A DNA stretch of 64,000 nt, from assembly GCA_045543955.1 (NCBI GenBank), contig JAZPYB010000028.1, forward strand, positions 46,172 through 110,171, read 5' to 3'. Both the position numbers and the translations under genes were made by a program. How positions within the stretch are numbered: position 1 is the first letter of the stretch; each line of letters opens with the position of its first letter. Shown here piece by piece: positions 37,335 through 64,000 of this stretch. This stretch comes from Eubacteriales bacterium (GTDB lineage: Bacteria > Bacillota > Clostridia > Oscillospirales > CAG-272). The notes under the pieces are model-generated. The model made no database searches. It saw only the letters and a list, made by a program, of their open reading frames with translations, and had not been told where the DNA came from.

Positions 37335-40300
37335 ATGCAAAGAACAAGAAAATTGCTTTTGCTGGCGTTGGTTTTCATTGTGCTTATCTCTTGCATCGTT
37401 TTGAATGCTTGTGCTAAGGACCATATTGATACTGACACAGATTCAAGCAGCGATTCTGCTTCTGACACAGGTGCTACAGATACTAGCACAAACAGTTCGA
37501 CCGACAAGGATTCAAATGACGATATAGTTCAAGAGGGCGAGACAAACTACACAATTACCGTAAAGACCAAGGGCAATATGCCTCTTGAGGGAATTAAGGT
37601 TTATGTTCTTGACTCGAATGGAAACTTCTCACTTGACAGAATGGGTACAACAGATAATAAAGGAACGATTTCTTTCGTTATCCCGACAGATGAGTATACT
37701 ATTTCACTTGAGGGCGTTCCTTCTGGCTACAAGGTTGAAAAGGAATATCCAATGGACGAAGAGGGAGCAGACATTGTTCTCGAGTCCGAGCTTAGAACCG
37801 GCGACCCATCAAGCGCAAAATACCAGCTTGGTGACATCATTCACGATTATTCAATCACAGTAGATGGCGTTACATATAAGTTTTCCGATATTTTAAAGGA
37901 AAAGGATGCAATTGTTCTTAACTTCTGGTTTACAACCTGCTCTTACTGTATTGAGGAGTTCCCTGATATGGATGCTTCTTATGCAAAATATAGCGACAGA
38001 GTGGCACTTTTTGCATTAAACGGTAAGCTCGGTGGAGATTCTCCTGCTGATGTTAAGAGCTTCAAAAATAAATTCTACTTCAGCTATGCAGATTACAGCG
38101 CTATTGCTAATGCGCTAAAGGCTTCTTCTGATGAAACAGTAGTTACTCTTGGTAACGCACTTGCAAGCAAATCCTTTGATTTAGCAAAAATTAACACAGC
38201 GATAGATGGTATGCTTTCAGCTGTTAAGGGTGCATCAGATGCTTCCGCTGCTGCAAAATCACTTTCAAGCACGATTGAATCTGCTATTGGCGAGCTAGAG
38301 GATTCTAAAATGAGAGTTGCTCTTGCAAACTTTGCAACTGCACTTAAGGACGCAACAGGCACAAGCCTTGAGGCTGCTTTTGAAACTGCAAAGAGCGAGA
38401 TTGCCGGTGCATATTCACTCAGCCTTCCTATGGCTAAGGATGAAAATGATATTGAGGGCAAATTCGGTATTACAGGTAACCCTGTAACAATAGTTATCGA
38501 CCGCTATGGTATGATTTCATTTATGCATACAGGAGCAGTTCCTAACGAAAAATATTTCGATATGTTGTTTGAATACTATATTGTTAGCGATGAGGCTTAT
38601 GTTCAAAGAACATTTAGTGGTATAACAGAATTAACTCCTACTGATAAACCAACTGAAGAAATGCCAAGCCAAGAGGCTCTTGCAGGCGTTCTTAATAATG
38701 GCACAATAAATGTTACATATGAGCCGGAAATTGAATCTGGCGATGCTGAATATTCTTGGCCATTTGTAATAACTAAAAAAGGCGAATTCAACTGCATTAA
38801 GCCTTCTAACTACGACAAGGATACATCATTCGCTACCCTTCACGCAAAGGTTGCCTTAAAGGCTGGCGAAGCATTTATGTTTGACTATTTTTCATCTACC
38901 GAGCAAGGCTATGACATCCTTTATGTGTTAGTAGATGGAAAGGATATTTACACAATCTCAGGCGAGAGCGATGATTGGAGTGGATGCTGTCCATGGGTTG
39001 CTACTAAGGATGGCACATATGATATCGCATTTGTTTATAATAAAAACTATGCAGATAAGAAGGGTGATGACGCAGTTTACCTCAAAAACTTCCGCGTTGT
39101 AAATTCAGCAAGCGTTAATGTTGAAACATATATTCCACGTGATGCAGTATCTGATTTGACAGATGACCTTTCTGATTACGAAAATTACGTAACAGCAGTT
39201 CTTGGTGACGATGGCTACTACCACGTTGGTACAAAGACAGGCCCACTTCTTTTGGCAAGTCTTATCAATTACACAAACTTCTCAGACAAAATTTCACTTA
39301 CACTTTCAATCTCAGACTCAAAAGAGCTTATGGTTGACGGCGTAAACTGTTATGATGATTTAATTCAATATTGTAACTACGCATCTAACTCACAAATTTA
39401 TTCATACTGTCCTGTTACACCAACCCTTCAAAAGTACCTTGCTGCCTTTGTAAAGAAGGAAACAGGTATAGGCGAGGACAATCCTAATCAATGGCTAACA
39501 CTTTGCTATTACTATGATGCTTATGGAACAAACGGCAAACAACTTGAAAATCCAATTAAAGGTCTTGCTACATTTAGTGCTTATGATGTAAAAGAGGATG
39601 CACCAAATGTTGTAGAATACAATAGAGTTATTATGCCAAGAGGCTTGCTCTACAAGTTTGTTCCTACAAAAACTGGTGTTTATAGATTTACAACAAAGAG
39701 CGAATACGAGGTTAACGGCTGGGTATTCGTTGGCGACCACGATACATGGGTTAAAAACGGCGACAGAATAGAGTATACAAACTCCGACCTTGGCGAACGC
39801 TTCTGTACAGAGCTTCTCGTTGACCCTGACGGAGACGGCAAGAACTTTGAAAGAGACTTCACAAACGCATCAATGGTTGCTTATATGGAGGCAGGCAAGG
39901 AATATTTTATTAACTTTGCTTACTATGACCAGTATCAATATGGTAAGTTCACATTTGACGTTAAATTCTTAGGCGACGCATTTAACTACTTCATTGTTGC
40001 ATCTCCAGGTCCATTCACATATGAAGAGGGCGTTGGTGGTGTACAAGGCGATACAATCGCCGGTGGTATCAATGTTGAACTCGGCGAAGATGGATATTAC
40101 TACCACAAGCGTGAGGACGGCACACTTGGTTCACGTCTATACGCAGATTTCCATCAATACACAAACATCTTCACAACTCGTTCAATTGAAAACTTAATAA
40201 ATGCTGGCGCATTTAATTTCGCAATTACAGAGGTTGACCAAGAGGCTATTGCATATCTAAGCGCTTATGGCGAGGATGGACTTAAAACTCTTTGGGGCGA

Positions 40301-40688
40301 CACCTTTGAAGAAAACTGGGAGTATTACCAAATGGACGATATCATGGAAGGTAAATACCACGGTTACATTGTTGACGGCAAATTAAAGGCTTATGGCTAT
40401 GAATATGTTATAGTTGACGAGGAAACTCTTGAAACTGAAGCTGTTCTTCAAACCCCACCAAAGGGTGCGGTACAAGCCTCCGACTATACTGAGGCAATTA
40501 AAAAATACCTACCTCTTATGCTTGACGAGGAGACAAACCCAGAAAGACAAGGCTGTGTTGCAGTAGATGAAGAATTAGCAAAAATTCTACAATTCCTCAT
40601 GGACAAATTTACATTTGAGGGCGTTGAGCATTCTTGGACAAAGCTTTGCTACTATTACGAATATCTCGGTTCTGAAGTTACCGAATAA
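37335..40688 (+). CDS. large lipoprotein with TlpA-like redoxin domain and uncharacterised repeated domains
   Basis: Lipobox LNAC, D/T/S linker, LNFWFTTCSYC..EFP, P.TIVIDRYG. Confidence 0.85.
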   Translation: MQRTRKLLLLALVFIVLISCIVLNACAKDHIDTDTDSSSDSASDTGATDTSTNSSTDKDSNDDIVQEGETNYTITVKTKGNMPLEGIKVYVLDSNGNFSLDRMGTTDNKGTISFVIPTDEYTISLEGVPSGYKVEKEYPMDEEGADIVLESELRTGDPSSAKYQLGDIIHDYSITVDGVTYKFSDILKEKDAIVLNFWFTTCSYCIEEFPDMDASYAKYSDRVALFALNGKLGGDSPADVKSFKNKFYFSYADYSAIANALKASSDETVVTLGNALASKSFDLAKINTAIDGMLSAVKGASDASAAAKSLSSTIESAIGELEDSKMRVALANFATALKDATGTSLEAAFETAKSEIAGAYSLSLPMAKDENDIEGKFGITGNPVTIVIDRYGMISFMHTGAVPNEKYFDMLFEYYIVSDEAYVQRTFSGITELTPTDKPTEEMPSQEALAGVLNNGTINVTYEPEIESGDAEYSWPFVITKKGEFNCIKPSNYDKDTSFATLHAKVALKAGEAFMFDYFSSTEQGYDILYVLVDGKDIYTISGESDDWSGCCPWVATKDGTYDIAFVYNKNYADKKGDDAVYLKNFRVVNSASVNVETYIPRDAVSDLTDDLSDYENYVTAVLGDDGYYHVGTKTGPLLLASLINYTNFSDKISLTLSISDSKELMVDGVNCYDDLIQYCNYASNSQIYSYCPVTPTLQKYLAAFVKKETGIGEDNPNQWLTLCYYYDAYGTNGKQLENPIKGLATFSAYDVKEDAPNVVEYNRVIMPRGLLYKFVPTKTGVYRFTTKSEYEVNGWVFVGDHDTWVKNGDRIEYTNSDLGERFCTELLVDPDGDGKNFERDFTNASMVAYMEAGKEYFINFAYYDQYQYGKFTFDVKFLGDAFNYFIVASPGPFTYEEGVGGVQGDTIAGGINVELGEDGYYYHKREDGTLGSRLYADFHQYTNIFTTRSIENLINAGAFNFAITEVDQEAIAYLSAYGEDGLKTLWGDTFEENWEYYQMDDIMEGKYHGYIVDGKLKAYGYEYVIVDEETLETEAVLQTPPKGAVQASDYTEAIKKYLPLMLDEETNPERQGCVAVDEELAKILQFLMDKFTFEGVEHSWTKLCYYYEYLGSEVTE

Positions 40689-40692
40689 TTTG

Positions 40693-40740: not shown

Positions 40741-42357
40741 ATGAATAAGAAAATATTACTAATTTTGTGTGCGATATTTCTCCTTTGTTTCTTGCTATGC
40801 GCTTGCGGAGGAGATGGCAATACTGATACTGAAACAAGCACTGAAACAAATACGGAAACAGAGACAAATAAAGACACGTCCTCCAACGAAATCGACTATA
40901 CAGTCAAGGTTGTGGACTATAAGGGAGAGCCAATCTCTACTGGGCTTTTTGTTCAGTTTTACAAGGACGGAAAAGCTTTTGATTCAATGAAAAAGGCAGA
41001 CGCAAATGGTACAGTTGTGTTTAAAATGGAAAAGGCTGATTATACCTTTGAGGTTATTTATACGGATTCAGAAACCTTGACCTATGACAAGGAAGGCTGT
41101 ACCTTGACAGCGCAAAATCCATCAAAGGAGATTGTGCTATACAATATGCCAAGCGAGGATACTATCAAAATATTCCCTTATGATAGTAAAAAAGGCGACA
41201 CCTATGAATATGAGGCTGTTGTTATTAGCGAGGGCGCAACTAAGGCTACAATTGATGGTATGACCTACTATGTTTTCCGTGCTACACGCGGGGGAGTGTA
41301 CAAATTTAGCTATATTTGCGACGTTGCAATCAACATCGGTTTTTATGGAATGAGCGCGAATGTGTTAAGAGAAAACACCGCTGAAATTGAAAATCGTGCA
41401 TTCCAGCTTGAAATTAAGGACTCTAGTGCCTCAACTCCTGGTGGAGAAATAGTTATTGGTATTAAATCCTTGGCAACAGATAATTGTATCCTTACAGTTG
41501 AGAGAATCAGCGATGCTTCAAAGCCAATTCAGAGGCTTGAGTATCCCGCAAGTGAGGTTCCAAGCTCTAAAGTAAACTATAATTATTTAAATGGCGATAT
41601 TGTTGATTTAGATATAAAAAACCCTAATCTTGAGGTGGTATACAATGAGGATGATGGGTATTACCATCTTGGAACACTAGATGGCGATATCGTTCTTGTG
41701 AGAATCTCAACTCCAAGCAAATATATAGCTTCCTTTAAGGAAATGTGCGATGTTACTAAGCTCTTTAAGATATTTACTGACGAAAATGGTACTCCTTTAA
41801 GAGAAGAAACTTATAATGAAATGATTACAAAATATGCAGAAAAGTGCGACAACGCCGGAGTTGTTCCTTTGACTAAGGAGCTTGCATATGCTATTCAAAA
41901 TATTCTAGAACAGCAAGGCTGGTATGGAAACAACAACATCTTTAAGGAAAAAGAAACTGTTGACGACCAAGGAAATATTATTGAGGGCGAAAAAATAAGC
42001 ATTCCTGAAAAAAATGCATGGCTCTTTCCTTGCTGTATCTTGAAGGAAAACGATAAAGGTGCGCTTGACAAGAAAATCGTTGTAGAGGACACACTTGACC
42101 CTAAGCCAGCTATTGTTATAATGGACGGAGAAGAAACACTATATTTTAAGGCGAAAAATCAAGTCAAGGCTACATTCTTTATAGAAGATGCTAAAGATGT
42201 TAAGGTTTTGGTAAATGGCGCTGAACATATAGCCAATGAAAATGGTGTTATTGAGATAATATTTGAAGCGCTTGACGGAGCCATCGAATTTGAAATCGTT
42301 AACATAAGCAAGACATCTCAAGAGATTGAATTTACATATGTAACATATGTAGGTTAA
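40741..42357 (+). CDS. lipoprotein sharing a DGYYH...W..C domain with the upstream redoxin
   Basis: Lipobox LCAC, T/E linker, Ig-like N-terminal domain. Confidence 0.8.
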   Translation: MNKKILLILCAIFLLCFLLCACGGDGNTDTETSTETNTETETNKDTSSNEIDYTVKVVDYKGEPISTGLFVQFYKDGKAFDSMKKADANGTVVFKMEKADYTFEVIYTDSETLTYDKEGCTLTAQNPSKEIVLYNMPSEDTIKIFPYDSKKGDTYEYEAVVISEGATKATIDGMTYYVFRATRGGVYKFSYICDVAINIGFYGMSANVLRENTAEIENRAFQLEIKDSSASTPGGEIVIGIKSLATDNCILTVERISDASKPIQRLEYPASEVPSSKVNYNYLNGDIVDLDIKNPNLEVVYNEDDGYYHLGTLDGDIVLVRISTPSKYIASFKEMCDVTKLFKIFTDENGTPLREETYNEMITKYAEKCDNAGVVPLTKELAYAIQNILEQQGWYGNNNIFKEKETVDDQGNIIEGEKISIPEKNAWLFPCCILKENDKGALDKKIVVEDTLDPKPAIVIMDGEETLYFKAKNQVKATFFIEDAKDVKVLVNGAEHIANENGVIEIIFEALDGAIEFEIVNISKTSQEIEFTYVTYVG

Positions 42358-42421: not shown

Positions 42422-44566
42422 ATGAGTAAAAAGCTTTTATCTATTTTACTTGTTATGATACTCGGCATTGTGCTAGTATTTGCTTCATGTGGTGGAAATG
42501 GTGACACTAATACAGACACCGACACAAAAACAGACACAGAAACAAATACCGAGACTAATACCGATACAGAAACAACTACAGAAACAGAAACTGAAACTGA
42601 AACTGAGGCAAAAGAATTCATTTACACAGTTTATGTAGAAAATCAATTAGGGCAGCCTGTCGAGGGAGTGAATCTTCAAATTTGTAATGATTCATTCTGC
42701 CTTACATCTAAAATCACAGACGCAGAGGGCGTTGCAAAGTTTACCATCGACTTTGAGGATAAATTCAAGGTTCAAATCAACTCCGTTCCTAAGGAGGGCG
42801 GCTATATTATGCCAGAGGTAAACAAAATACCTTTTGAAGATGGCAAATCAACAATGGTAGTAATTATTGAACAAAATGAAACATATGTTGTAACTGCGGC
42901 TGACCTTCACGGCAAGAATCTTTCTGGTATTTTGGTTGAACTACTTGATGAATCAAAGAATGTAGTTGGTAGCATTGTTACCAAGGAAAACGGCGTTGCT
43001 GAATTTGTGGTTGCTCCCGGTACATACTATGCAAGAGCAAGTCACAGCGAGGGTAATGGTGCGTATAAGCTGATTACAATTGATGAAGAGGGCTTGGTTA
43101 ACTTTAAAGACACAAAGACCAAACAAATTCAATTTACAGTTGTTGATACACCAATTGACTATACTGTAAATGTTGAAGGCGCAAAATCAGACGTTAAGGT
43201 AATGCTTTATAATAAAGAATTAGACCTAGTGGACGAAAAGACAACATCAAACGGAGTTGCTAAATTCCAAGCTCCAAACGGCGACTATTTTGCAGTTCTT
43301 GATTCTGCATTGGGCACATATGCTAATTATGTAGAGTTTTCAAAGGATGGAAAAACAACAGGAGAAATGACCGTATCAGCTGATAAAGCAGGTAGCAAGG
43401 ACACACCAATCTTTTTGGTTGGGGATATTAATGTAACACTTGCAAAGGGTGAGTCTGTTTGGTATTTTATTCCTAATTCAAACGGAAAGGTTATCGAGAT
43501 CGAATCAGCAACTGCAAGCATCATATATAATGGTCTGCCAAAAAATCCTATTGATGGCAAAATAAAGGTGGATTTAAAGAGTGGAGCCGCTGTTAAGCTT
43601 TCAACCACAGCTGAAGCTGGCGAGACAATCACCGGTAAGGTTTATCTCCCTGGCTCACAAAAGACACCATATGAAATAAATGAAAGCGCAATCGGCGAAG
43701 GCTATAAGCTCACGGCTGATGTCGTTGAAAACGGTGCTGTTTATTACTCATTTGTTGCTAGTAAGGATGGCACAGTAAGAGTATCAAACACAACAGAAAA
43801 CGCATATATAACTATCAATGGCAACCCAAATAAAAAGTCTGTAAAAGCGGGCGATACAGTTGTTATCTGTTTAGCAACTCAAAAGGGTGCAGAAGGCAAC
43901 ATTGAAAGACCAGCAGCAAGCATTGAAGCAACGCTTACATTTGCTAAAACAAATGCAAATTATAATGTAACAGTTATTTTAGATAATGAGCCACTCAAAA
44001 ATGCTGAATTACAACTTTACAAGCTTGAAAACGAAAGCTATGTTGTATGTGGTGAAGGCACAGTGGTGTGTGATGCAAACGGAAAATACACATTTACAGG
44101 TCTTGAGGAAAGAGCAGATTACTACATAAAGGTAACATGTCCAGATGGTTATGAGACTGAAAAGGAATATATTCCATTTGGCGATGAAACAGACATCACT
44201 ATTTATGTTAATCACGAAAGAGATGGCAGCTTGGAGTATCCATTCCTTGTAAACGGCGACGAAAATACTTCTAGTACAACAGAAATAACAGTAGAAACAG
44301 GCAAAAAGGTATATTACACAATTTTCTATATTGCTGGTGCTACTATTTCAATAGATAACAAGGATGCGAAGGTTGAAATTATCGTTAATTCGAAAACAGA
44401 GGCTATCTTAACAGGCGAAACTCTTTCATATCAACTAGTTAGCTCAAGTGGCTCGGAATCAAGCAATGGTACAACAACAAGAGTTCTTATTCTTGTTTCA
44501 ATGGCTGACGAAACAGCGAGTGGAACAGTTAACTTGACAATTACAGCACCTGAAATAAAGGAATAA
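42422..44566 (+). CDS. lipoprotein with repeated Ig/prealbumin-like beta domains
   Basis: Lipobox FASC, (TD/TE)n linker, repeated T...GVA.F and GS...P units; own TTGCAA-N17-TATAAT at 42363-42391. Confidence 0.8.
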   Translation: MSKKLLSILLVMILGIVLVFASCGGNGDTNTDTDTKTDTETNTETNTDTETTTETETETETEAKEFIYTVYVENQLGQPVEGVNLQICNDSFCLTSKITDAEGVAKFTIDFEDKFKVQINSVPKEGGYIMPEVNKIPFEDGKSTMVVIIEQNETYVVTAADLHGKNLSGILVELLDESKNVVGSIVTKENGVAEFVVAPGTYYARASHSEGNGAYKLITIDEEGLVNFKDTKTKQIQFTVVDTPIDYTVNVEGAKSDVKVMLYNKELDLVDEKTTSNGVAKFQAPNGDYFAVLDSALGTYANYVEFSKDGKTTGEMTVSADKAGSKDTPIFLVGDINVTLAKGESVWYFIPNSNGKVIEIESATASIIYNGLPKNPIDGKIKVDLKSGAAVKLSTTAEAGETITGKVYLPGSQKTPYEINESAIGEGYKLTADVVENGAVYYSFVASKDGTVRVSNTTENAYITINGNPNKKSVKAGDTVVICLATQKGAEGNIERPAASIEATLTFAKTNANYNVTVILDNEPLKNAELQLYKLENESYVVCGEGTVVCDANGKYTFTGLEERADYYIKVTCPDGYETEKEYIPFGDETDITIYVNHERDGSLEYPFLVNGDENTSSTTEITVETGKKVYYTIFYIAGATISIDNKDAKVEIIVNSKTEAILTGETLSYQLVSSSGSESSNGTTTRVLILVSMADETASGTVNLTITAPEIKE

Positions 44567-44600
44567 TAAAAAAGGATGCCAAATTGGCATCCTTTTTATT
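44567..44600. terminator. bidirectional terminator
   Basis: aaaaaggatgcca-aat-tggcatccttttt between convergent genes. Confidence 0.85.
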
Positions 44601-46489
44601 TAGCTATTATGTGCTTTTTGAACCTCTGTTTCCAAGATGTCGGCAGTTATTGAGCCAAGCTTTGTGTATGTAATAACACCATCAGCATCAATTATTACAG
44701 TCATAGGATAAAGTCCGTAATTACTACCACCGAGCGCTTTATAGTATTCGTCAATTGTTTTTCCGGGAACATCTTGAGCAAATACCATTTTTGAGTCAGG
44801 ATAATTTGTTTGAACAAATGTAAATGCATCCTTGAAGCTCGGGTCGGTAGAGTGAATTTCAACTACTGTAACTGAACTTGAGTATTTTGAAGCAATATCA
44901 TCAAAATGTGGCATTTCAGCAACACAAGATGTGCATGTTGTGTACCAGAAGTTTATAACTGTAACCTTGCCGGTCTTTGTAGGGTCAATTTTTGTGTTTG
45001 AAAAACCGTTTTCATCAAATACATTTAATTCAATACTAGGGCAGGAGTCGCCAACCTTGTTGCCAACTGGTGGCTTTGGCTTGGTGTCTGTGTCTGTGTT
45101 GGATTCTGTGCTTGTATCGGTATCAACAATAGGAGGATTTTCGTCGTCTTCCCATAGCTCGTCATTTCTTATAACATTATAATAAACAAGAGCGCCTACT
45201 AAAACTACTGCCATAACCGAGCCGATAACAGTTTTTATAATATTGTTTCTTTTCTTTGTTTTTGCGTTGATTTCTTGTTGCTTTTCCTCGATGATTGCGA
45301 TTTCTTCGTCGGTTGCATCGTCGGGAATGTCAATTTCGTTAGGAGCAAGTAAAATCTTTGGTCCCTTGAATGAAATTGCTTTTGTAGGACAAACGTCAAT
45401 ACATTCGCCACAGCTGATACATTCACGGTCGCCAACGTGTCTAATATCCATTTCGCATTTCGCAATACAACGTCCACAGTTTGTGCACTTTGGTTTTTCA
45501 AGCTTGATTCCGAAGAATGAAATCTTGTTGAAAAGGCTATAAATTGCGCCCATAGGACAAATGAAACGGCAAAACGCTCTATATACAAATACAGAAATAA
45601 CAACAAAGCAAATGAATAAAGTGAATTTCCAAGTGAAGCCAGCGCCTAATATAGGTAATAGTGAATCAGGCTCGGCAGGTAACATACCAAACGCCGCCTC
45701 TAAAATGCCGGCTGGACATATGTACTGGCAGAAAATTGTGCCGATGCTGAGCGCTGCAAATATAATTGCAAGAGCCAGTATGACGTATTTTAAGTAAGAA
45801 AGAGCGCGAGTAACAGGGCTCTTTTTTAATTTAGGAGTCTTAATCTTGTGTAAAAGGTCTTGAACAAGACCGAACGGACAGAGCCAACCACATATAAAAC
45901 GTCCAAATATGAGTCCATATAGGAATATAATTCCAAAAATATAGAAGAAATAGTTTTTATCCTTTAGGCTGTTTTGAAGAGTGCCAAGAGGACAAGCGCC
46001 AATAGCACCAGGGCAGGAGTAACAGTTTATGCCAGGGGAGCAAATAAACTTTTCTTTTCCGCTGAACATGTTGCCTTGAATGTAGCCCTTGATGTTTGCG
46101 TTGAAGAGGAGAGCAGCATATAGCTGAATAAGTCTTCTCTTAGATGGAATAAGCTTTTTGAGAGCACCCAAAATGCGTTGCTTTCTTGTTTTGGGTTTTT
46201 CTACCTCGCTGATATCAACAACAACAGTGTCGTGAGCAATTGATACGTTTTTAACGTAGTCGGCAGCCTCCTCATCCTCGATGCGAGGTGCAGGCTCTGG
46301 AATTTTAAATTCAGTAGTGAAGCTATCGCTATAATCTCTAAACCTCAAGGAGTCATCGTCAATGTAATCCTTGATGTTAATGTTTATTAGGTCCTCGTCA
46401 TTATAGTGGGGCTTAACCTCGTTTAAATAAACGCCTTTATTTTCAGTAGGGATTAGCTTTAGCTTGACTTCGTTTCTTTTTCTAGCCAT
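44600..46489 (-). CDS. membrane 4Fe-4S protein (NapH/FixG-like) fused to a C-terminal TlpA-like redoxin
   Basis: CxxxCP motifs (CGWLCP, CQYICP, CRFICP), two ferredoxin motifs, a TM helix, then NFWYTTCTSC; GGAGGG RBS before ATG 46489. Confidence 0.88.
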   Translation of the reverse strand: MARKRNEVKLKLIPTENKGVYLNEVKPHYNDEDLININIKDYIDDDSLRFRDYSDSFTTEFKIPEPAPRIEDEEAADYVKNVSIAHDTVVVDISEVEKPKTRKQRILGALKKLIPSKRRLIQLYAALLFNANIKGYIQGNMFSGKEKFICSPGINCYSCPGAIGACPLGTLQNSLKDKNYFFYIFGIIFLYGLIFGRFICGWLCPFGLVQDLLHKIKTPKLKKSPVTRALSYLKYVILALAIIFAALSIGTIFCQYICPAGILEAAFGMLPAEPDSLLPILGAGFTWKFTLFICFVVISVFVYRAFCRFICPMGAIYSLFNKISFFGIKLEKPKCTNCGRCIAKCEMDIRHVGDRECISCGECIDVCPTKAISFKGPKILLAPNEIDIPDDATDEEIAIIEEKQQEINAKTKKRNNIIKTVIGSVMAVVLVGALVYYNVIRNDELWEDDENPPIVDTDTSTESNTDTDTKPKPPVGNKVGDSCPSIELNVFDENGFSNTKIDPTKTGKVTVINFWYTTCTSCVAEMPHFDDIASKYSSSVTVVEIHSTDPSFKDAFTFVQTNYPDSKMVFAQDVPGKTIDEYYKALGGSNYGLYPMTVIIDADGVITYTKLGSITADILETEVQKAHNS

Positions 46490-46500
46490 TGTACCCCTCC

Positions 46501-47325
46501 TTAAAATAGTCCGATGCAGCCGGAGCAAACCTTATCGCCTGCTAGACTAGCAACTTCTTTTAAATCATCAAAAAAGAATGATGTGATTATAAGACCTATA
46601 GCAACCACTAAAATAACGCAACGAGTGATTATAAGTATCTTTTTCTTGTGCTTTTCAAAGAAACAAGTTTTTTCTTCTTTTGCCTCAATTTTAGACACTG
46701 GATTGCCCATTTTCTTATTGTTTTCTATAATTAGCTTTATCGCTTCTAGCTCTCTTGAGTATGTGAAGTTGGCAAAAATAATATAAACTGCAATTACGAA
46801 AATCGGAATTATAGCATATGAAAGAGCAGTAGCGCATTGTGGCAAAAATTCAACAAGGTTTTCAGGGGATGTTGTCCTTAATTCACTGCCAACGAAGATG
46901 TAAAAGATTGCGGTTACAGCATTAATAACTGCATTGAAAATTGTTATAACCAAAAAAGCAACTCTAAAGCGCCTTTGGCTCTTAACAATGTCAACTAGCT
47001 GCTTAGGAGCCTCTTTAAAATTAATGCGCTTTGAAAGATTTTTTATAATATGCTTGTCCTCGATATTTGAGCGAAGCTTTTTGTCCTCTGCTGGCAAGAA
47101 AATATGCAAGCAAGCGCCACCAATAATAGCCAAAACGCACAATACGGTTGGGATTATTAAGGCAACAAAGTGAGACTTTATTGCTTCTGGTGTAAATGGA
47201 GAAGTTTCAGCGCTCTTGTAAATGTCTAGGCATGAAAGCGCAAAGCACACACCTAAAGCAACAATGAGCATTGAAAGGGCTACACCATAAATAATATGAA
47301 TGATTTTAATTCTTTTCTCAGTCAT
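46501..47325 (-). CDS. membrane protein with C-terminal CxxCIG motif (CD1871A-like)
   Basis: About five TM helices, ends KVCSGCIGLF; directly upstream of the 4Fe-4S gene; TTGACA-N17-TAGAAT at 47394-47366. Confidence 0.75.
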   Translation of the reverse strand: MTEKRIKIIHIIYGVALSMLIVALGVCFALSCLDIYKSAETSPFTPEAIKSHFVALIIPTVLCVLAIIGGACLHIFLPAEDKKLRSNIEDKHIIKNLSKRINFKEAPKQLVDIVKSQRRFRVAFLVITIFNAVINAVTAIFYIFVGSELRTTSPENLVEFLPQCATALSYAIIPIFVIAVYIIFANFTYSRELEAIKLIIENNKKMGNPVSKIEAKEEKTCFFEKHKKKILIITRCVILVVAIGLIITSFFFDDLKEVASLAGDKVCSGCIGLF

Positions 47326-47887
47326 CGCTTTCCCCTTGTCCTAATAATATAATACATTACACGTAATTCTATCATAAATTTTGCATATTGTCAAGTCAAA
47401 AACGACTATTTAGAATTTATTGGTAACAAAGCGCGTTAAAAGATTGCGCTTTTAGAAAGAAAAAAATCTATCGCGGGGTGAATATATGTTTCAATCTCCA
47501 AATTTTAAAAACAAACACTCCATCAAAGATTTTAATCAAAAACACACACAGGGTCGACATTTTTTGAAACTGAATTTTGCGATTGTATCTTTCAAGGAAA
47601 ATTTAAAAAATTGTAAACTTTTTTTAAAATAAAATGATAAAATAAGCCACTTTTCCAAAATAAAAATTATCTATAAATCTTGAAAGTGCCTGATACTATT
47701 AGCGTTTTACCACTTTTTTGCTTTATAAGGCTAAAGGAAAATGCCTTGTTTTTTTACTATCATCATATATTATTACTTTATACTACGATTTTTTCTACTT
47801 GAATTTTCTTTTTTAGTATGGTAAAATACTACCGTATGTTATGATTATATAATATAACCCGCAAAATAAAAGAAAGGCGAAAAATCA

Positions 47888-55447: not shown

Positions 55448-56947
55448 ATGAATAAGAAAATTAAATTATTGTTTATTGCGTTTGCAATATTCCTTATGTG
55501 CTTATTTGTTGCCTCATGCTCTAATAAAAGCGTGTATGATGAATACGATGATGATGGATATAAAGTAACGATTAGATATGATGCAAACGGCGGCTATTTT
55601 GGTAACGCTGGACAGCTTTATGTAAACGATACATATAATCTAGGTAAATATAGGGTAAACGAAAATGGAATGAAGGAGCTTCGCCTAATTGACTTGAACG
55701 ATGCAAGCAGAGGTAAAGCAAACAGATATCCACTAGACCCAGCATCAAATGTAGGATATTTCCACGCTGGCTGGTATACTGAAAAGACAGCTATGAAGGA
55801 TGCAAACGGCAACCTAATAAAGGACGATTTAGGTAACGTAGTATATAGCTACTCAGGAAAAATTAAGTTTCCACAGACAATAGAAATAGACCCAAAGAAA
55901 GAGTATTCAGCAGATGAGCCTGCTGTTACTGTATATGCCGCATGGGTAAGATGCCCACAAATTGAGGTATATGAAAAGGTTAACGGTAAGGACGTACTCG
56001 TAGGAACATACGAGGTATCAAAGCCACTAACAAAAGGTGGAGATTCAATTATTCTCCCATCAATTGACAGTGAAACTGGATATATGAAATTTAACACACT
56101 GGCAAGCGTTGGCGACTGGCAGGAAAGAACCTATGAGGATCATATCGCAATGACCGATAACGGACCTGTCACAATAAAGGTTACAAAGTTTTTTGACGGA
56201 TTTTATCTTGATTCCGCTCGCCAAAACAAGTTAAGCGGCACATCATATAAGCTTCCATTTGTTTATGATGAAGAAACCGCTACCATTAAAAATACAAAGC
56301 TAAAGCTTTATACAGGCTATGAAGAAAGAGTTGGCGAATGGTATAAGATTTATACAGCAAGTCAGCTTGAGGATACTGCAAATGAAACTGCAAGCTATGA
56401 AATTTTGGCAGACCTTGTGTTTACCGAGAGAGTTTCATGGCCAAACGCGTTTAGAACAGGCACCTTCGAAGGCAAAATTTTTGGTAATGGTCATACAATA
56501 AGCAACATTAGTATAGACAGTACAAATGGTCAATATTTCGGTATGTTCAAGGAAATTACAACCGATGCAGTAATTGAGAACATCACATTTGATAATGTAG
56601 TAGCAACACTTGATAAGTCGTATAGATATCCGGGTGGTAGATATGCGTTGTTTGCTGCAGTAATTTCAGGCGACGAAAATGGAGAAAGAAAGCCATTTGA
56701 AAACGTTAATATTATAAATTCAAAATTGGTTGTTTGCGCATCAGCTTACACAATAGAAACTAGTGATTATGAGGTTGGTTTACTTTGTGCAGACGGATAT
56801 AGTGAAAGCCTAGGAATTGACATAAGTGGTATTTCATATGAAACCTATGAGGAGGAATATGATATTTACACACTAAAAATTTCCAAGGGCGCAGACGGAA
56901 ACCAAATCAATCTTCTCTTTGAGATAAAGCCAGAGGAAGAGGAATAA
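55448..56947 (+). CDS. lipoprotein with InlB-B-like repeat and GLUG-like beta-helix segment
   Basis: Lipobox VASC, YDANGG...GWY, F.GKIFGNGHTISN...GMF. Confidence 0.75.
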   Translation: MNKKIKLLFIAFAIFLMCLFVASCSNKSVYDEYDDDGYKVTIRYDANGGYFGNAGQLYVNDTYNLGKYRVNENGMKELRLIDLNDASRGKANRYPLDPASNVGYFHAGWYTEKTAMKDANGNLIKDDLGNVVYSYSGKIKFPQTIEIDPKKEYSADEPAVTVYAAWVRCPQIEVYEKVNGKDVLVGTYEVSKPLTKGGDSIILPSIDSETGYMKFNTLASVGDWQERTYEDHIAMTDNGPVTIKVTKFFDGFYLDSARQNKLSGTSYKLPFVYDEETATIKNTKLKLYTGYEERVGEWYKIYTASQLEDTANETASYEILADLVFTERVSWPNAFRTGTFEGKIFGNGHTISNISIDSTNGQYFGMFKEITTDAVIENITFDNVVATLDKSYRYPGGRYALFAAVISGDENGERKPFENVNIINSKLVVCASAYTIETSDYEVGLLCADGYSESLGIDISGISYETYEEEYDIYTLKISKGADGNQINLLFEIKPEEEE

Positions 56948-56990: not shown

Positions 56991-59627
56991 ATGAAAAAGA
57001 GAATACTCGCACTTGTGCTTTGCATTTTAATGTGCTTGGGCACGGTTGCACTTTTCTCAAGCTGTGGCAAAAGTAATGGTGGAAAGCCAGACGCTTTCGT
57101 TATTATGTCCGAGGACTTCGATGGTGTATTTAACCCGTTCTTCTCAACAACAGCAGCAGATGGTACAATAGTATCAATGACACAAATCGGCATGCTCTCA
57201 TCAGAGTATGTAAATGGTGTGGTTCAAGAAGCGTATGGCGAGGACCACGCAACAGTAACAAAGGACTTTGAAATTTCAGAGTACGACAAAAAGAATGACG
57301 AAACAGTTTATACCTTCGTTTTAAAGAATGGTATCAAGTATTCAGATGGACAACCACTTACAATGGAGGACGTTCTTTTCAACCTCTATGTATATCTTGA
57401 CCCATCCTACACAGGCTCAGCAACAATCTATTCAACAAAGATTAAGGGCCTTTCAGAGTACAGAACCCAATCAAATGCTTCAGGCAGCACAAGCCAAGAC
57501 GAAATTATTACTGAGCAAGCTGCGAAGAGAGCACAAGCGCGTATTAACGAGCTTATAAATATTTTTGTTTCAAATGGCAAAAACCAAAGCGGCTACGAGC
57601 TATCATATGACGATATGGTAGCAGCAATTGAAAAGAAGAAGCCTTCAAAGGGCTACAAGGAAGCAGTTGCAGGTGGCGGAACAAATGAAACACTACTTGC
57701 TGACTATGAATATGCATTAAAGCTATTCAAGGAAGAGCTTAATGACGACTATGTAGCTGCACAAAGCGCATATACAGAAACAGAGCCATATAAGTCCCAC
57801 CCATTCTTCAAGGATGAGGTTGCTCGCTTTATGTACCACGAAGGATATGTAACAATCGAGTGGGGCAAAAAGGTAGTTAACGGTAAGGAAACAGATGACA
57901 AGAGCGTTATCGTTTCTGTAACTCCTAACTACAATACATCAACAGTTACAACAAAGGAAACAGCTATTAATTATGTATATGATGCAAAGGTAGAAACAGA
58001 GCTTCATATTATCCTTTCTGCTTGGGCAACAGCTGCTGAGCTTATGACAGAATATACAGCTGAGGCTAAGGGCGTAATTCTAAACGAGGGCAAGAAGGGC
58101 GATTCACTAGTTTATGACCACGTTTCTGGTATCGTTTCACTTGGTCACAACACAAATGAAACATCTATAACAGTAAACGGAAATGAGTACAAAATTGCTC
58201 AAGAGCATAACGAGGATGGAACTCCAAAGAATGCTGATGAGTATGATGTTCTTCAAATCACTATTGAGGGACAAGACCCTAAGGCAAAATGGAACTTCGC
58301 TTTCTCAGTAGCTCCTCAACACTACTATGGCGATAGCACACAATATCCAGTAGATATTGAAAACAACAAGTTTGGTGTAGATTATGCTTCATATGATTTT
58401 ATGAAGAATGTAATTCAAAAGCCAAACAAAACAGCAGTACCAGTTGGTGCTGGTGCATATAAGGCAACAAATGTAAAAAATGAAGACAATCCGGTAGGTA
58501 CTGGCTTCCTTTCAAATAACGTTGTTTACTTCAAGGCAAACACTCTATTTGAAACAGTAGGAGAAAAGATTCAAAACGCAAAGATTGAAAAGGTTCGTTA
58601 TCAAGCGCTCCCAGCAGCTGACGCGATTGCAAACCTCGAAAGCGGAAGCGTTCACTATATCTCTCCACAATTAACAGACGAAAACTATGACAAATTAACA
58701 TCATTGCAAAACAAGGGTGGCTTTAAATTTATGCAAGAAAAGCAGCTCGGCTATGGTTATATCGGTATCAACGCAGATAAAATTCAAAGCCTAGAGCTTC
58801 GTCAAGCTATTATGTGCGCAATGAATACAGCAACATCACTTAGCTACTACCGTCCAGGAACAGCTGAGCAAATCTTCTGGCCTATGTCAACAGTAAGCTG
58901 GGCATATCCAAGAACAGAAAATGAAGAAGGCGAGCTTGTCCTTGATAATAAGAACAATAAAAACTATCCATATATTGGTAACTGGTCATCAGATCTAAAT
59001 GGTGATGGAATGGCAGATGGCGAGGCAGCAGCAAGAAAGAATATCGAAGCACTTGTTCAAAAAGCAAAGAAGAACGGCTATACAGACAAGGATTTGAAGA
59101 TTGAATTTACAATTGCCGGAGCTTCAACTGACCACCCAACCTTCCAAACATTTATTGATGCCGCAGCACTTCTTAATAGCATGGGCTGGGATATCACAGT
59201 AGTTCCTGATGCAACAGCGCTTACAAAGCTTTCAAGCGGTGGTCTTACAGTTTGGGCAGCTGCTTGGGGCTCAACACTTGACCCTGATATGTATCAGGTA
59301 TATCACAAGAATTCAACAGCATCCAGTACAAGAGCTTGGGGCTACAACTTCCTAAGAACAGAGGGCGGTGAGCAAGAGGCTATTCTTGATGACCTCAGTG
59401 AAAAGATTGACGAGGCAAGAGAGATTCTTGACGAAAACGAGCGTGCAGCTATCTATAAGGAGGCTATGAGCTTGCTACTTGACCTTGCAGTTGAGCTTCC
59501 TGTATATCAAAGAAGCGTAGTTTATGCATATAACTCAGACGTGATTGACCCAGAGTCATTCCCTGCAGTTTCTAATCCTTATTCATCACCACTTGATAGA
59601 ATTTGGGAGCTTGAATTTAAAGACTAA
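56991..59627 (+). CDS. oppA: oligopeptide ABC transporter substrate-binding lipoprotein (family 5, enlarged)
   Basis: Lipobox FSSC, YTF.LK.G.K.SDG.PLT.EDV.F, PVGAGAYK, LRQA. Confidence 0.9.
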   Translation: MKKRILALVLCILMCLGTVALFSSCGKSNGGKPDAFVIMSEDFDGVFNPFFSTTAADGTIVSMTQIGMLSSEYVNGVVQEAYGEDHATVTKDFEISEYDKKNDETVYTFVLKNGIKYSDGQPLTMEDVLFNLYVYLDPSYTGSATIYSTKIKGLSEYRTQSNASGSTSQDEIITEQAAKRAQARINELINIFVSNGKNQSGYELSYDDMVAAIEKKKPSKGYKEAVAGGGTNETLLADYEYALKLFKEELNDDYVAAQSAYTETEPYKSHPFFKDEVARFMYHEGYVTIEWGKKVVNGKETDDKSVIVSVTPNYNTSTVTTKETAINYVYDAKVETELHIILSAWATAAELMTEYTAEAKGVILNEGKKGDSLVYDHVSGIVSLGHNTNETSITVNGNEYKIAQEHNEDGTPKNADEYDVLQITIEGQDPKAKWNFAFSVAPQHYYGDSTQYPVDIENNKFGVDYASYDFMKNVIQKPNKTAVPVGAGAYKATNVKNEDNPVGTGFLSNNVVYFKANTLFETVGEKIQNAKIEKVRYQALPAADAIANLESGSVHYISPQLTDENYDKLTSLQNKGGFKFMQEKQLGYGYIGINADKIQSLELRQAIMCAMNTATSLSYYRPGTAEQIFWPMSTVSWAYPRTENEEGELVLDNKNNKNYPYIGNWSSDLNGDGMADGEAAARKNIEALVQKAKKNGYTDKDLKIEFTIAGASTDHPTFQTFIDAAALLNSMGWDITVVPDATALTKLSSGGLTVWAAAWGSTLDPDMYQVYHKNSTASSTRAWGYNFLRTEGGEQEAILDDLSEKIDEAREILDENERAAIYKEAMSLLLDLAVELPVYQRSVVYAYNSDVIDPESFPAVSNPYSSPLDRIWELEFKD

Positions 59628-59641: not shown

Positions 59642-60703
59642 ATGTTAAAATATATACTAAAAAGAGTAGGATTATCTCTTCTTATATTAATAGCTGTATC
59701 TATTATCATTTACTTTCTAGTTCGTTTAATGCCGGTTGACTTCGTTGCTGCAAACGCGGGTATGAACTCAGAGCCTGAGACTCTTGATAAAATCCGCGAG
59801 CAGCTCGGCATTGGAGACAATAGCTTTGGCGGAATTGTAAAGGGATATTTTGATTGGCTAGGAAATTTGTTTGAATTTGAGAATGGCTTTATCACTCTCG
59901 GTCGTTCATTCAAGCTAAATAACCAACCAGTATCTCAAGTAATTCTCCAAGGCTTGCCAGTTTCATTCATTGTTGCATTGATTGCAACAGTATTTGAGTT
60001 TTTAATTGCAATTCCTCTAGGAATTACAGCGGCAACTCATCAATATTCATTCAGAGATTACTTCATTACTGTACTTGTAATGATAGGTATCTCCCTCCCA
60101 TCCTTCTTCTTTGCCAACATCTTTAAGGCGGCATTTGGAGACGGAGGAATAATAGATGGCATTTTGACCAACATATTCCAAGAGGGCTCGTCCGCTTATG
60201 AGTTCTTTAGTAGCTTCCTTGTTTTCCCAGTTTCGGGTACAACGGACGCATCACAAAGCGCGACGGGAATTATGGGTATTTTAGGCAATCTAAGATATTA
60301 CATATTGCCAATTTTCACCATCACTATTTTGAGCCTTGGTGGAAGAATGAGAATGACAAGAACCAATATGCTTGAGGTTCTAAACTCTGACTATATTCGT
60401 ACAGCCAGAGCAAAGGGACTAAAGGAAAGTAAGGTAATATATAAGCACGCCTTTAGAAATACATTAATCCCACTTGTAACAACATTAGCAGGACTTATAC
60501 CGGCACTATTCTCAGGTGCGATAATTACTGAAAAAATCTTCGGTCTTGATGGTATCGGTACAACTGCTCTTAACCTAACCAACAACGGAGATATTCCGTT
60601 TATTATGGGCTACAATATGTTCCTAGCAACTCTTAGTGTTATAGGAATTTTGATGTCAGATATTATGTACGCAATTGTTGACCCACGAGTAAAGCTGAAG
60701 TAA
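59642..60703 (+). CDS. oppB: oligopeptide ABC transporter permease
   Basis: MLKYILKR, DYIRTARAKGL, KHAFRN, DPRV. Confidence 0.93.
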   Translation: MLKYILKRVGLSLLILIAVSIIIYFLVRLMPVDFVAANAGMNSEPETLDKIREQLGIGDNSFGGIVKGYFDWLGNLFEFENGFITLGRSFKLNNQPVSQVILQGLPVSFIVALIATVFEFLIAIPLGITAATHQYSFRDYFITVLVMIGISLPSFFFANIFKAAFGDGGIIDGILTNIFQEGSSAYEFFSSFLVFPVSGTTDASQSATGIMGILGNLRYYILPIFTITILSLGGRMRMTRTNMLEVLNSDYIRTARAKGLKESKVIYKHAFRNTLIPLVTTLAGLIPALFSGAIITEKIFGLDGIGTTALNLTNNGDIPFIMGYNMFLATLSVIGILMSDIMYAIVDPRVKLK

Positions 60704-61896: not shown

Positions 61897-61901
61897 GAGA
61901 A

Positions 61902-63137: not shown

Positions 63138-64000
63138 TGGCTGATGAAAAAATAACCGAAGTTGAAGAAACAGAAGTAGAAAAAGAAGCTGTTGAATCTC
63201 CTGAAGAAACAGTAGTATACGATGATGAAAAGGAGCAAGAAGCATTTCTTGCTAAGCGTAAGGCTCAAATAGAGGCTGACAAAACAAAGCCCTTCGACCC
63301 AGATGCACTTTTAGAGGTACGCCACCTCCGCAAAAGCTTCCCGATAAAGAAATCAATGACTGGAAAGGTTTTGCAGGAGCTTGTTGCAGTTGATGATGTT
63401 TCATTCACACTTAAAAAGGGAGAAACCCTTGGTATAGTTGGAGAATCCGGATGTGGCAAAACCACAATGGGTAGAACAATTTTGAAGCTTCATCCATCAA
63501 ACGGCGGACAAATTATATTTGATGGTAAGGATATTACAAATTATAAATCCTCTCAAATGCGTGAAATTCGTCGTCAAATGCAAATAATTTTCCAAGACCC
63601 ATATTCATCCTTGCCACCACGTTCAACCGTTGGCGGTATCCTTTCTGAGCCTGTCGGAGTTCACAAAATCGTTCCCAAATCTCAAATTAAGGAATACGTT
63701 CTTGAGCTTATGGATAAATGTGGTCTTCGCGATTACTATTATGAAAGATATCCACATGAGTTTTCTGGTGGACAACGTCAAAGAATTTGTATAGCAAGAG
63801 CGCTTTCAGTAAAACCTAAGCTTGTTGTTTGTGACGAGCCTGTTTCAGCTCTTGACGTATCAATTCAAGCACAAATTATCAACCTTCTAAAAAGCCTACA
63901 AGACTCAATGGGGCTTACATATCTCTTTATCTCACATGACCTTTCAGTTGTAAAGTTCATTTCTGATAAAATCGGAGTTATGTACCTTGGCTCAATGATG
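63137..64000 (+). CDS. oppF: oligopeptide ABC transporter ATPase (3'-truncated by window)
   Basis: ATG 63137 overlaps the oppD stop; hand translation shows GESGCGKT, FSGGQRQR, DEPVSALD. Confidence 0.9.
   Translation, partial: MADEKITEVEETEVEKEAVESPEETVVYDDEKEQEAFLAKRKAQIEADKTKPFDPDALLEVRHLRKSFPIKKSMTGKVLQELVAVDDVSFTLKKGETLGIVGESGCGKTTMGRTILKLHPSNGGQIIFDGKDITNYKSSQMREIRRQMQIIFQDPYSSLPPRSTVGGILSEPVGVHKIVPKSQIKEYVLELMDKCGLRDYYYERYPHEFSGGQRQRICIARALSVKPKLVVCDEPVSALDVSIQAQIINLLKSLQDSMGLTYLFISHDLSVVKFISDKIGVMYLGSMM

Follow-up and report, generated by a model that had tools for sequence, protein, structure and literature searches.

A putative composite locus for feeding on extracellular protein joins a surface protease and Opp importer to an iron-sulfur redox unit in a member of the Eubacteriales

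We analyzed a window of 64,000 nucleotides from the genome of an Eubacteriales bacterium (Clostridia; Oscillospirales; CAG-272; GenBank assembly GCA_045543955.1, contig JAZPYB010000028.1, positions 46,172 to 110,171 of the forward strand), focusing on the gene block that runs from position 37335 to the end of the window. We can best explain this block as two units that together make a conserved, composite locus with which the cell would feed on extracellular protein. Unit 1 encodes a cell-envelope S8 protease of 2,486 amino acids (aa), a 499-aa lipoprotein, and a dedicated OppABCDF importer; by analogy with known systems, it is an ordinary set for surface proteolysis and peptide uptake. Unit 2 encodes a CxxC-tailed membrane protein, a fusion of a NapH-like polyferredoxin with a redoxin (here NapH-redoxin), and three lipoproteins that we call LipA, LipB, and LipC. 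We infer that unit 2 is a thiol-reducing relay that operates without CcdA or DsbD. Because the linkage between the units survives rearrangement, and because they co-occur from genome to genome, our analysis argues that they work together. How anaerobic gut Firmicutes gain access to host and dietary proteins that are held together by disulfides is poorly understood. If our reading is true, a gene set in which reduction at the surface is coupled to proteolysis and uptake would offer one concrete and testable answer.

Organization of the locus

The listing of open reading frames (ORFs), together with Pfam and NCBIfam scans, located every gene that a first-pass annotation of this DNA had named: a CxxC membrane protein, a 4Fe-4S protein ending in a redoxin, a lipoprotein redoxin with a CSYC motif, accessory lipoproteins, the large S8 protease, and oppABCDF (Table 1). 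The genes are real: each of them has full-length relatives, at 25 to 90% identity, in dozens of genomes. The same annotation had treated the block as one system. The linkage behind that view stood up, but the single unit did not: the block consists of two units, which lie on different contigs in 2 of 31 genomes.

The LipABC genes converge with the NapH-redoxin gene, and the pair formed by the CxxC-tail and NapH-redoxin genes diverges from the S8 gene across an intergenic region of 562 bp, inside which lies the promoter-like site of the pair. Pattern matches to promoter and terminator consensus sequences suggest three transcription units. The hairpin between LipC and the NapH-redoxin gene has T runs on both flanks and, by the consensus scan, looks like a bidirectional terminator. 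An Rfam scan over the whole window returned only three tRNAs, with no riboswitch or leader in the divergent region and no cysteine or sulfur regulatory element. We considered and rejected the idea that the block is a compositional island, as its GC content (0.35 to 0.42) is not distinct from that of its surroundings. In the genome, OppF extends ∼261 bases past the end of the window, and there the locus stops; the genes that follow are on the opposite strand and look unrelated, as judged from their first residues only, without a family search.

Table 1. Features of the locus and of the surrounding window. Positions are those of the window unless a genome coordinate (genome:contig:position, G000 being the window's own genome) is given.
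Feature	Position	Strand	Description
Promoter-like site upstream of LipA	37262..37290	+	TTGACA, 17-nt spacer, TATAAT, with TG; 12/12 consensus matches only
LipA	37335..40688	+	1,117-aa lipoprotein; lipobox LNAC
LipB	40741..42357	+	538-aa lipoprotein; lipobox; no family above threshold
LipC	42422..44566	+	714-aa lipoprotein; lipobox; bMG3, CarboxypepD_reg, and SdrD_B-type beta-sandwich domains
Hairpin between convergent LipC and NapH-redoxin genes	44569..44597		13 pairs; consensus scan only
NapH-redoxin	44600..46528	-	642 aa; NapH-like polyferredoxin fused to TlpA-like redoxin
CxxC-tailed membrane protein	46501..47325	-	274 aa; 5 predicted helices; ends CSGCIGLF
Promoter-like site for CxxC-tail/NapH-redoxin pair	47366..47394	-	11/12 matches with TG; consensus only
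Cell-envelope S8 protease	47888..55348	+	2,486 aa
499-aa lipoprotein	55448..56947	+	All-beta; no Pfam or NCBIfam family
OppA	56991..59627	+	878-aa family-5 substrate-binding lipoprotein; SBP_bac_5, 9e-20
OppB	59642-60703	+	BPD_transp_1, BPD_transp_1_N, and OppC_N matches across OppB/OppC
OppC	60718-61896	+	As for OppB
OppD	61902-63137	+	ABC ATPase; oligo_HPY C terminus
OppF	63098 onward, cut by window end at 64000; G000:C28:109269-110432	+	ABC ATPase; 387 aa in the genome
234-aa lipoprotein redoxin	G000:C10:9697-10401		Unrelated neighbors
Terminator-like hairpin closing the upstream GT2 gene	37130-37152		Consensus scan
711-aa ORF	33677-35812	-	No Pfam match
NrdD anaerobic ribonucleotide reductase	30275-32641	-	C-terminal glutaredoxin-like domain, residues 717-767
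Three tRNA genes	27960-28389		After the serine recombinase
Large serine recombinase	26155-27636	+	Low-GC stretch
D12-class adenine methyltransferase	22598-24757	-	Low-GC stretch
AlwI-type restriction endonuclease	20617-22587	-	Low-GC stretch

Linkage and co-occurrence across genomes

To score linkage, we took as much as 20 kb from either side of the NapH-redoxin gene in 31 other genomes with a fused or closely related split form of this gene and mapped the window's proteins onto it with tblastn. Unit 1 was linked to NapH-redoxin in 26 of the 31, and these 26 genomes represent three orders with four families among them. The contigs of three others (G006, G010, and G166) were too short to judge, and in two genomes the units were separated. 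Within the window's genus plus G043, the genes for the S8 protease, the 499-aa lipoprotein, and OppA to OppF sat directly beside the redox pair in 19 of 21 loci, the contigs of the other two (G006 and G010) ending too soon. Five of six genomes from the wider order were linked, two of them from other genera of the family (G144 and G259) and three from another family (G281, G320, and G384); the contig of G166 is 1.7 kb long, so that its linkage cannot be judged. Outside the order but within the class, the complete set is present in G590 and, within 30 kb and at only 27 to 40% identity, in G809, whose S8 protease is only 30% identical to the window's.

At least five gene arrangements were found among the 26 linked loci. 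In the window type, LipA and LipB come before the redox pair; they come after OppF in G144, G281, and G320; and G384 has every gene in the same orientation, LipA and LipB being placed between NapH-redoxin and S8. The orders in G590 and G809 are again distinct. LipA and LipB are on another contig in G027, where the contig with NapH-redoxin ends ∼400 bases past the gene and adjacency cannot be judged. The upstream neighbors of the block, namely NrdD, NrdG, a thioredoxin-reductase-like gene, a 711-aa ORF, and the GT2 gene, lose linkage outside the genus; the last two flank the locus at genus level. As a control, we inspected 11 loci with an unfused NapH-like gene (∼300 aa), and none had S8, the 878-aa OppA (OppA878), LipA, or the 499-aa protein nearby.

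We then counted co-occurrence irrespective of position. Both queries were run on 36 genus genomes: NapH-redoxin and S8 were both present in 20 and both absent from 15, and one genome (G018) had an S8 fragment only; 9 of 13 further genus genomes, searched for S8 only, were positive. In a sample of 401 genomes from the order, the fusion was present in seven genomes besides the window's, and the 499-aa protein (E < 1e-28) was present in six, all of them among the seven fusion carriers. The seventh carrier, without a match to the 499-aa protein, is 72% complete. In a sample of 399 genomes from the class, OppA878 orthologs (E ≤ 1e-89) were found in exactly G590, G809, G830, and G664, which are the four genomes of that sample with close relatives of fused or split NapH-redoxin; nine other genomes gave only weaker matches, to the C-terminal half of OppA878. 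Each sampled genome with one unit had the other too, incomplete assemblies excepted. These counts are descriptive rather than a statistical test, related genomes not being independent. Co-conservation of the redox and protease/Opp genes had been set beforehand as the test of the proposal made in the first-pass annotation, and both the linkage and the genome-by-genome co-occurrence bear it out. Small-genome gut Clostridia keep a giant surface protease and a peptide importer together with an iron-sulfur redox unit.

The redox unit

NapH-redoxin gave three Fer4_5 matches in Pfam (4e-23) and carries two 4Fe-4S motifs. Its NCBIfam scores were 86.0 bits against TIGR02163 napH (cut-off, 213.05) and 82.4 bits against NF007013 NapH (cut-off, 234), both below the cut-off. 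As judged from these matches, the protein has the NapH fold and motifs but stands outside the NapH/MauN equivalog. Among the 21 window ORFs scanned with Pfam, all from base 20617 onward, none matched a Nap protein; no search of the genome was aimed at Nap or quinone genes. Translation most likely begins at Met14 (∼base 46489), because that Met is invariant in 27/27 aligned sequences, and with this start the gene would therefore not overlap the upstream CxxC-tail gene.

The predicted layout is a cytoplasmic N-terminal extension, four helices with four CX3CP-type motifs, a ferredoxin domain, a hydrophobic helix (residues 430 to 448), a Thr/Asp-rich linker, and a Redoxin/AhpC-TSA domain with CTSC at residues 532 to 535. 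In the NapH part, 22 Cys/Pro motif positions are invariant in all 27 aligned sequences; the same holds for C163-x-P-x2-N-C169-Y-S-C172-P-x5-C179-P, for the three CX3CP motifs C213/C217, C267/C271, and C320/C324, and for the eight ferredoxin cysteines. Ortholog alignments likewise show the CxxC and cis-Pro of the redoxin, all CX3CP motifs, and the tail CxxC of the partner protein to be invariant. The fused redoxin domain contains FWYTTCTSCVAEMP and the cis-Pro loop LYPMT, WGTWCxxC being the reading in most fused orthologs. Its best NCBIfam match was ResA NF002854 at 37.3 bits, below the cut-off of 170.

Hydropathy, loop charge, and the four-helix topology of NapH, which we assume to apply here, would place C213/C217, C320/C324, and the ferredoxin domain on the inner side of the membrane and the first Cys motif, C267/C271, the fused redoxin, and the tail of the partner on the outer side. 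The N-terminal extension of the window's copy is acidic and ∼115 aa long (residues 1 to 116, before the membrane part); roughly half of the fused orthologs share it, whereas the unfused forms lack it. In one genome only (G809), the gene directly downstream of NapH-redoxin (L089:2116-2874, plus strand) encodes a protein of 252 aa that combines a flavodoxin domain with two 4Fe-4S motifs and is a candidate cytoplasmic electron donor to the relay.

In almost all loci, the gene immediately upstream of the NapH-like one encodes a protein with a CxxC tail of this kind. For the window's CxxC-tailed protein, the positive-inside pattern predicts that the CSGCIGLF tail faces outward. In an alignment of the window's copy with 21 orthologs, C267, C270, and G272 were invariant (22/22), and the consensus ended in ...KA.NICTECIGLG. 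Seventeen of the 22 sequences matched NF040920 (CD1871A family CXXC motif-containing protein) at E ≤ 0.01, with a best value of 3e-12; the window's own copy gave no match to this model (cut-off, 32 bits). By alignment, the 274-aa protein is a long-form homolog of the CD1871A family in which the window's tail has diverged. A ∼50-aa ORF with one helix and the ending C.EC[IV]G[IL]G lay directly upstream of 10 of the 11 unfused NapH-like genes, which come from other families, and the two such ORFs that were compared with NF040920 both matched (65 and 43 bits). A separate redoxin gene lay directly downstream in 3 of the 11 loci. In view of these upstream CxxC ORFs and downstream redoxin genes, the redox module is a recurrent triad whose parts are either split or fused, and the pair in the window is an enlarged and fused version of this widespread module.

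Complex prediction for the NapH core with the last helix and tail of its partner gave a score of 0.38, the best of three controls scoring 0.00; runs agreed in at least 78% of contacts, and the pLDDT (model confidence) of the partner was at least 65. Fifty-eight of 80 solved complexes attained the mark used for such predictions, compared with 2 of 110 mismatched pairs; with scores of 0.60 or lower, only 7 of the 80 solved complexes did so, along with both of the passing mismatches. The prediction lends weak support to a complex between the NapH core and the partner's tail.

LipA begins with a prealbumin-like domain, followed by a TlpA/ResA-like redoxin with CSYC at residues 202 to 205 and by several jelly-roll beta-sandwich domains that resemble carbohydrate-binding modules (CBMs). 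The redoxin is split by a helical insert of ∼130 aa between FWFTTCSYCIEEFP and the cis-Pro loop GNPVT. W198, T200, T201, C202, C205, and P383 are invariant in 17/17 orthologs. ResA NF002854 was again the best NCBIfam redoxin match, at 49.6 bits and below the cut-off of 170. An AlphaFold2 model of LipA (mean pLDDT, 80.7) was compared with known structures by Foldseek, which returned the C-terminal thioredoxin-plus-CBM chain of DipZ (2hyx) at an E value of 1e-5, a thiol-disulfide oxidoreductase of Bacillus (4nmu) with a target TM score of 0.82, and numerous jelly-roll or CBM chains, for which whole-chain TM scores were low. As modeled, LipA joins a redoxin to binding-type beta-sandwiches. For residues 420 to 1117, a search of the ESM Atlas gave a best score of 0.78, below any useful level.

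LipB orthologs come after LipA in most loci. A paralogous relationship between LipA and LipB is not clear, as BLASTP finds only a short DDGYYH.GT motif (E, 0.002). LipC is the least conserved member of the locus, with only 12 full-length orthologs found.

Both LipA and the fused domain carry the thioredoxin-fold motif of TlpA, ResA, and CcmG (CxxC-xxE.P plus a cis-Pro loop), and we therefore rejected a peroxiredoxin reading of the AhpC-TSA matches. The first-pass annotation had assumed that the redoxins work outside the cytoplasm. The predictions agree: LipA has a lipoprotein signal, and the fused redoxin follows a transmembrane helix and the Thr/Asp linker. Three predicted outward TlpA-like domains were found in the window's genome, in LipA, in the NapH fusion, and in the 234-aa lipoprotein of Table 1. 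A search with DsbD_TM (PF02683) for a conventional source of reductant was negative in the genome that holds the window (completeness, 95.95%) and in all 50 genus genomes searched (0/50), while 10 of 14 reference genomes were positive in a control search. The pair of NapH-like and CD1871A-type proteins was the only candidate reductant route found in the window's genome. The redox unit points to a way of delivering reducing power across the membrane in a genus in which CcdA/DsbD was not found.

The proteolysis and uptake unit

The S8 protease consists of a signal peptide, an S8 domain (Peptidase_S8, 3e-42) with a PA insert (residues 473 to 548; 7e-15), an Fn3_5 domain (residues 712 to 842; 4e-13), a region of BspA-type leucine-rich repeats (LRR_5; seven stretches, ∼800 aa of repeats), a C-terminal helix, and a Lys-rich tail. 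The catalytic triad D213, H289, and S610, in DTG, HGT, and GTSMA motifs, is invariant in 26/26 orthologs. Among solved structures, the protease comes closest to those of the C5a peptidase (7edd; 3e-66), of SpyCEP, and of a cell-envelope proteinase, and the alignment to 7edd and 5xya covers residues 201 to 850. The C terminus has a hydrophobic helix (residues 2400 to 2418) before the Lys-rich tail, with no LPxTG in the last 106 residues. Anchoring is thus predicted to occur by means other than a sortase LPxTG signal.

The 499-aa lipoprotein always sits between the protease and OppA, and its C-terminal half has GLFG/GLLAG-type repeats. Its structural model (pLDDT, 88.9) had no match in the PDB at E ≤ 0.001; the best local match was a putative IgA1 protease (3n6z; E, 0.078), a weak likeness in a beta-helix region. 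In G830, a 1,503-aa protein is encoded at the position expected for S8, divergent from the CxxC-tail gene (L095:1997-6508, plus strand). Its only Pfam match is a weak GLUG motif, which may be compared with the repeats of the 499-aa lipoprotein.

The Opp importer is a full set of one binding lipoprotein, two BPD_transp_1 permeases, and two oligo_HPY ATPases, the oligo_HPY part of OppF lying beyond the window and its C terminus being read from the genome. At 878 aa, OppA is unusually large for a family-5 binding protein. It matched NCBIfam Opp4A at 8e-28 with a score of 97, far below the cut-off of 650, and its solved relatives, such as AppA (1xoc; 5e-11), are distant. Both ATPases have Cys-rich ends, HCYFKERCSECKKAC...ACH in OppD and GCRFHTRCPYAKEICK...ACH in OppF, and OppD has an N-terminal extension of ∼70 aa. 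The OppF homolog of G809 is 752 aa long; its ABC domain does not begin until ∼residue 411, and the first part of the N-terminal extension looks hydrophobic.

Proposed mechanism

We tentatively propose a sequence of surface disulfide reduction, proteolysis, and Opp uptake, to which we give a little less than an even chance. The pair of 4Fe-4S clusters in the NapH-like protein would accept electrons of low potential from the cytoplasm. These would then cross the membrane by way of the CX3CP motifs, two of which are predicted at its inner and two at its outer face; at the outer face, the CxxC tail of the CD1871A-type partner would join in the transfer. From there the electrons would pass to the fused TlpA-like redoxin, which would in turn reduce the redoxin domain of LipA while the jelly rolls of LipA hold the target. 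The likeliest targets would be disulfides in extracellular proteins or in disulfide-linked peptides. Once reduced, these could be cut at the surface by the anchored protease, which is of the cell-envelope proteinase type, and the linear peptides could be imported by Opp with its oversized OppA. The 499-aa lipoprotein would be an accessory to the protease and Opp.

The data establish the gene content, the conserved motifs, the linkage, and the co-occurrence; the topology, the direction of electron flow, the step from redoxin to redoxin, and the target are inferred. Electron flow toward surface thiols fits because the polyferredoxin is predicted to lie inside and the TlpA-type redoxins outside. 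A reducing role of the redoxins would follow from their coupling to a cytoplasmic polyferredoxin, since reverse flow, from thiols to ferredoxin-type clusters, would be uphill judging from redox potentials; for the same reason we judge an oxidizing, DsbA-like role to be unlikely. Disulfides in substrates are favored as the target because LipA has large binding-type domains and because the relay is dispensable in step with the protease.

A more specific version is doubtful, although we do not consider it far-fetched. It holds that the CD1871A-type and NapH-like proteins form an iron-sulfur-wired transmembrane disulfide reductase that replaces CcdA/DsbD, a membrane-spanning counterpart of ferredoxin:thioredoxin reductase, and that this reductase is dedicated here to foraging on disulfide-rich glycoproteins. 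The CBM-like domains of the charged surface redoxin would grip host or dietary glycoproteins, such as mucins and secretory antibodies, which would be unfolded by reduction, cut by the leucine-rich-repeat protease, and imported by Opp.

Alternative explanations

Several observations weigh against the proposal that the two units work together in this way. Two genomes, G830 and G664, have an intact S8-Opp unit that lies on a different contig from NapH-redoxin. In G001, G002, and G005, LipABC is on a contig other than that of NapH-redoxin, S8, and Opp, and LipABC stays beside GT2 and the 711-aa ORF in G005 and G033. LipABC is present in G033 (86% complete), in which no NapH-redoxin or S8 was found. 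The linked genomes may share one origin followed by lateral transfer, and for that reason they do not count as 26 independent events. The first NapH helix falls under the hydropathy threshold, so that the outward position of the first Cys motif depends on the assumed NapH topology. In addition, the cell may need surface thiol chemistry in general, because a crude lipobox scan of the window's genome (a regular expression on raw ORFs, false positives included) returned Cys-rich candidates: of 66 candidate lipoproteins with a median Cys content of 1.26%, ten had 29 to 74 Cys (3.5 to 7.3% Cys, with one at 2.1%). Such numbers are unusual for exported Gram-positive proteins; examples are encoded at C27:12448-16326, C19:79178-81601, and C28:2629-4977 of G000. 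Lastly, the locus's own surface proteins could be real clients of the redox unit, because many Cys are conserved in them: 11 in the S8 protease (at least 23/26 orthologs), among which C338 and C354 are in the catalytic domain; C613, in the GTSMAC motif three residues after the catalytic Ser (22/26); and 6 in LipA outside its redoxin motif.

The alternative that survives best builds on these cysteines. It states that the redox unit serves the proteins of the locus itself, keeping Cys of the protease, LipA, and LipB reduced or correctly paired, or switching the protease on. The known TlpA-like proteins ResA, CcmG, StoA, and TlpA all serve the maturation of specific envelope proteins. C551, C692, C724, C1074, and C1105 of LipA are conserved in at least 22/25 sequences, LipB has a conserved CC pair, and upkeep of this kind would explain the tight linkage as well. 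However, LipA carries ∼700 aa of CBM-like domains beside its redoxin, which is more than a folding helper needs; many of the S8 cysteines are in the leucine-rich-repeat region, where Cys is often a buried core residue; and LipABC can sit apart from the protease. We regard this explanation as unlikely, though it deserves to be taken seriously.

The pair could also be a housekeeping reductant for the whole surface proteome, its linkage being merely inherited gene order. The negative search for CcdA/DsbD in 50 genus genomes, the many Cys-rich candidate lipoproteins elsewhere in the genome, the further lipoprotein redoxin among unrelated neighbors, and the wide distribution of unfused CD1871A/NapH pairs with varied neighbors would all fit. 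Yet the 15 of 36 genus genomes without the pair are also without the protease, and a role in general upkeep would not be expected to disappear together with a single protease. Moreover, the linkage survives at least five rearrangements and S8 divergence to 30% identity, whereas the GT2 and 711-aa genes, syntenic in the genus, are unlinked outside it. We consider a purely housekeeping role improbable.

Transporters of the Opp type import linear peptides, and some family-5 binding proteins bind glutathione or metal chelates. It is likewise improbable that the redox unit makes a thiol or sulfur nutrient importable via OppA (cystine-bridged peptides, or glutathione-type or mixed disulfides left by proteolysis), with cysteine or sulfur acquisition and not easier cleavage as the benefit: OppA878 is atypical in size, has only distant solved relatives, co-occurs strictly with the redox unit, and has NikA and CntA among its weak NCBIfam matches, but this explanation does not account for the 2,486-aa protease being the most tightly linked partner, and the Rfam scan of the window found no cysteine or sulfur regulatory element to go with it.

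Other features of the window

The 711-aa ORF is found at 68 to 92% identity beside GT2 and LipA throughout the genus and is duplicated in tandem in G003, G015, G017, G025, and G036. Farther upstream, NrdD is flanked by an NrdG-type radical SAM activase and a thioredoxin-reductase-like flavoprotein (29301-33590). A stretch of low GC content (0.30 to 0.35) at positions 18000 to 27700 contains the restriction endonuclease, methyltransferase, and recombinase genes of Table 1 and looks like an integrated mobile element beside the tRNA genes.

Comparison with known systems

Unit 1 resembles the lactococcal PrtP (lactocepin)/PrtM/Opp system, as well as the C5a peptidase and SpyCEP, in its surface S8 protease with a PA insert and Fn3_5. 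Like the lactococcal system, it has a lipoprotein gene beside the protease and a family-5 Opp importer that takes up the products. PrtP and ScpA carry a sortase LPxTG wall anchor, whereas the protease described here has ∼800 aa of BspA-type LRR_5 repeats and a putative anchor of a helix and Lys-rich tail. Unlike PrtM, the 499-aa lipoprotein has no PrtM/PpiC match, and OppA here has 878 aa. The locus is also tied to redoxins and an iron-sulfur membrane protein; to our knowledge, the lactococcal system has neither.

Unit 2 can be compared with the pathways from DsbD or CcdA to TlpA, ResA, CcmG, and StoA. It shares with them TlpA-like redoxins, predicted to face outward, with CxxC and cis-Pro and, as proposed, a relay from a membrane-tethered redoxin to a second redoxin. 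The layout of LipA matches the C-terminal part (2hyx) of DipZ of Mycobacterium tuberculosis, which combines a CcdA-like membrane domain with a thioredoxin and a CBM-like domain. In contrast to these pathways, DsbD_TM was found in neither the locus, the genome, nor the genus, the membrane part is NapH-like with a CxxC-tailed partner, and electrons would arrive via iron-sulfur clusters instead of by thiol-disulfide exchange from a cytoplasmic thioredoxin.

In the NapH-like systems (NapH, NosR, and PceC/RdhC), the outer domain is an FMN-binding domain flavinylated by ApbE (Meheust et al. 2021, eLife, PMC8238504). According to the accessible text of that paper, they share with our locus a Fer4_5 membrane protein, cytoplasmic 4Fe-4S clusters, and a proposed transfer of electrons out to an extracytosolic redox domain; the locus differs in having a TlpA-like redoxin as the outer domain and a CD1871A-type partner. 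The same text mentions thioredoxin-like proteins with the DsbD and P19 systems and not with the NapH-like ones. Keratin degradation, in which sulfitolysis or disulfide reductases act with S8 keratinases (PMC7017815, PMC6906142, and PMC6095591), follows a similar logic of reduction, cleavage by a subtilisin-type protease, and import. There the reductant is sulfite or assorted reductases, and the accessible portions of these papers describe no single conserved locus and mention no surface-anchored redoxin relay wired to a protease and an importer.

Our literature search, which did not extend to subscription journals or supplements, returned no paper on CD1871A, no protein utilization locus of this kind, and no pairing of NapH-type proteins with TlpA-type redoxins, such as the supplementary gene-cluster tables of PMC8238504 might list. 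The PrtP-like part, with its proteolysis and Opp uptake, is already known, and its combination with an iron-sulfur redox unit is undescribed in the literature searched.

With the polysaccharide utilization loci of Bacteroidota (SusC/SusD), the locus shares only a logic, in that binding lipoproteins, a surface enzyme, and an importer are encoded together. No SusC or SusD domain turned up in our general Pfam scans of the locus, and no dedicated search was made. The importer here is an ABC transporter, and the envelope is likely of the Gram-positive type, so the comparison is one of analogy and not of membership. If the proposed coupling of reduction, proteolysis, and uptake is true, the locus would be a protein counterpart of these glycan utilization loci.

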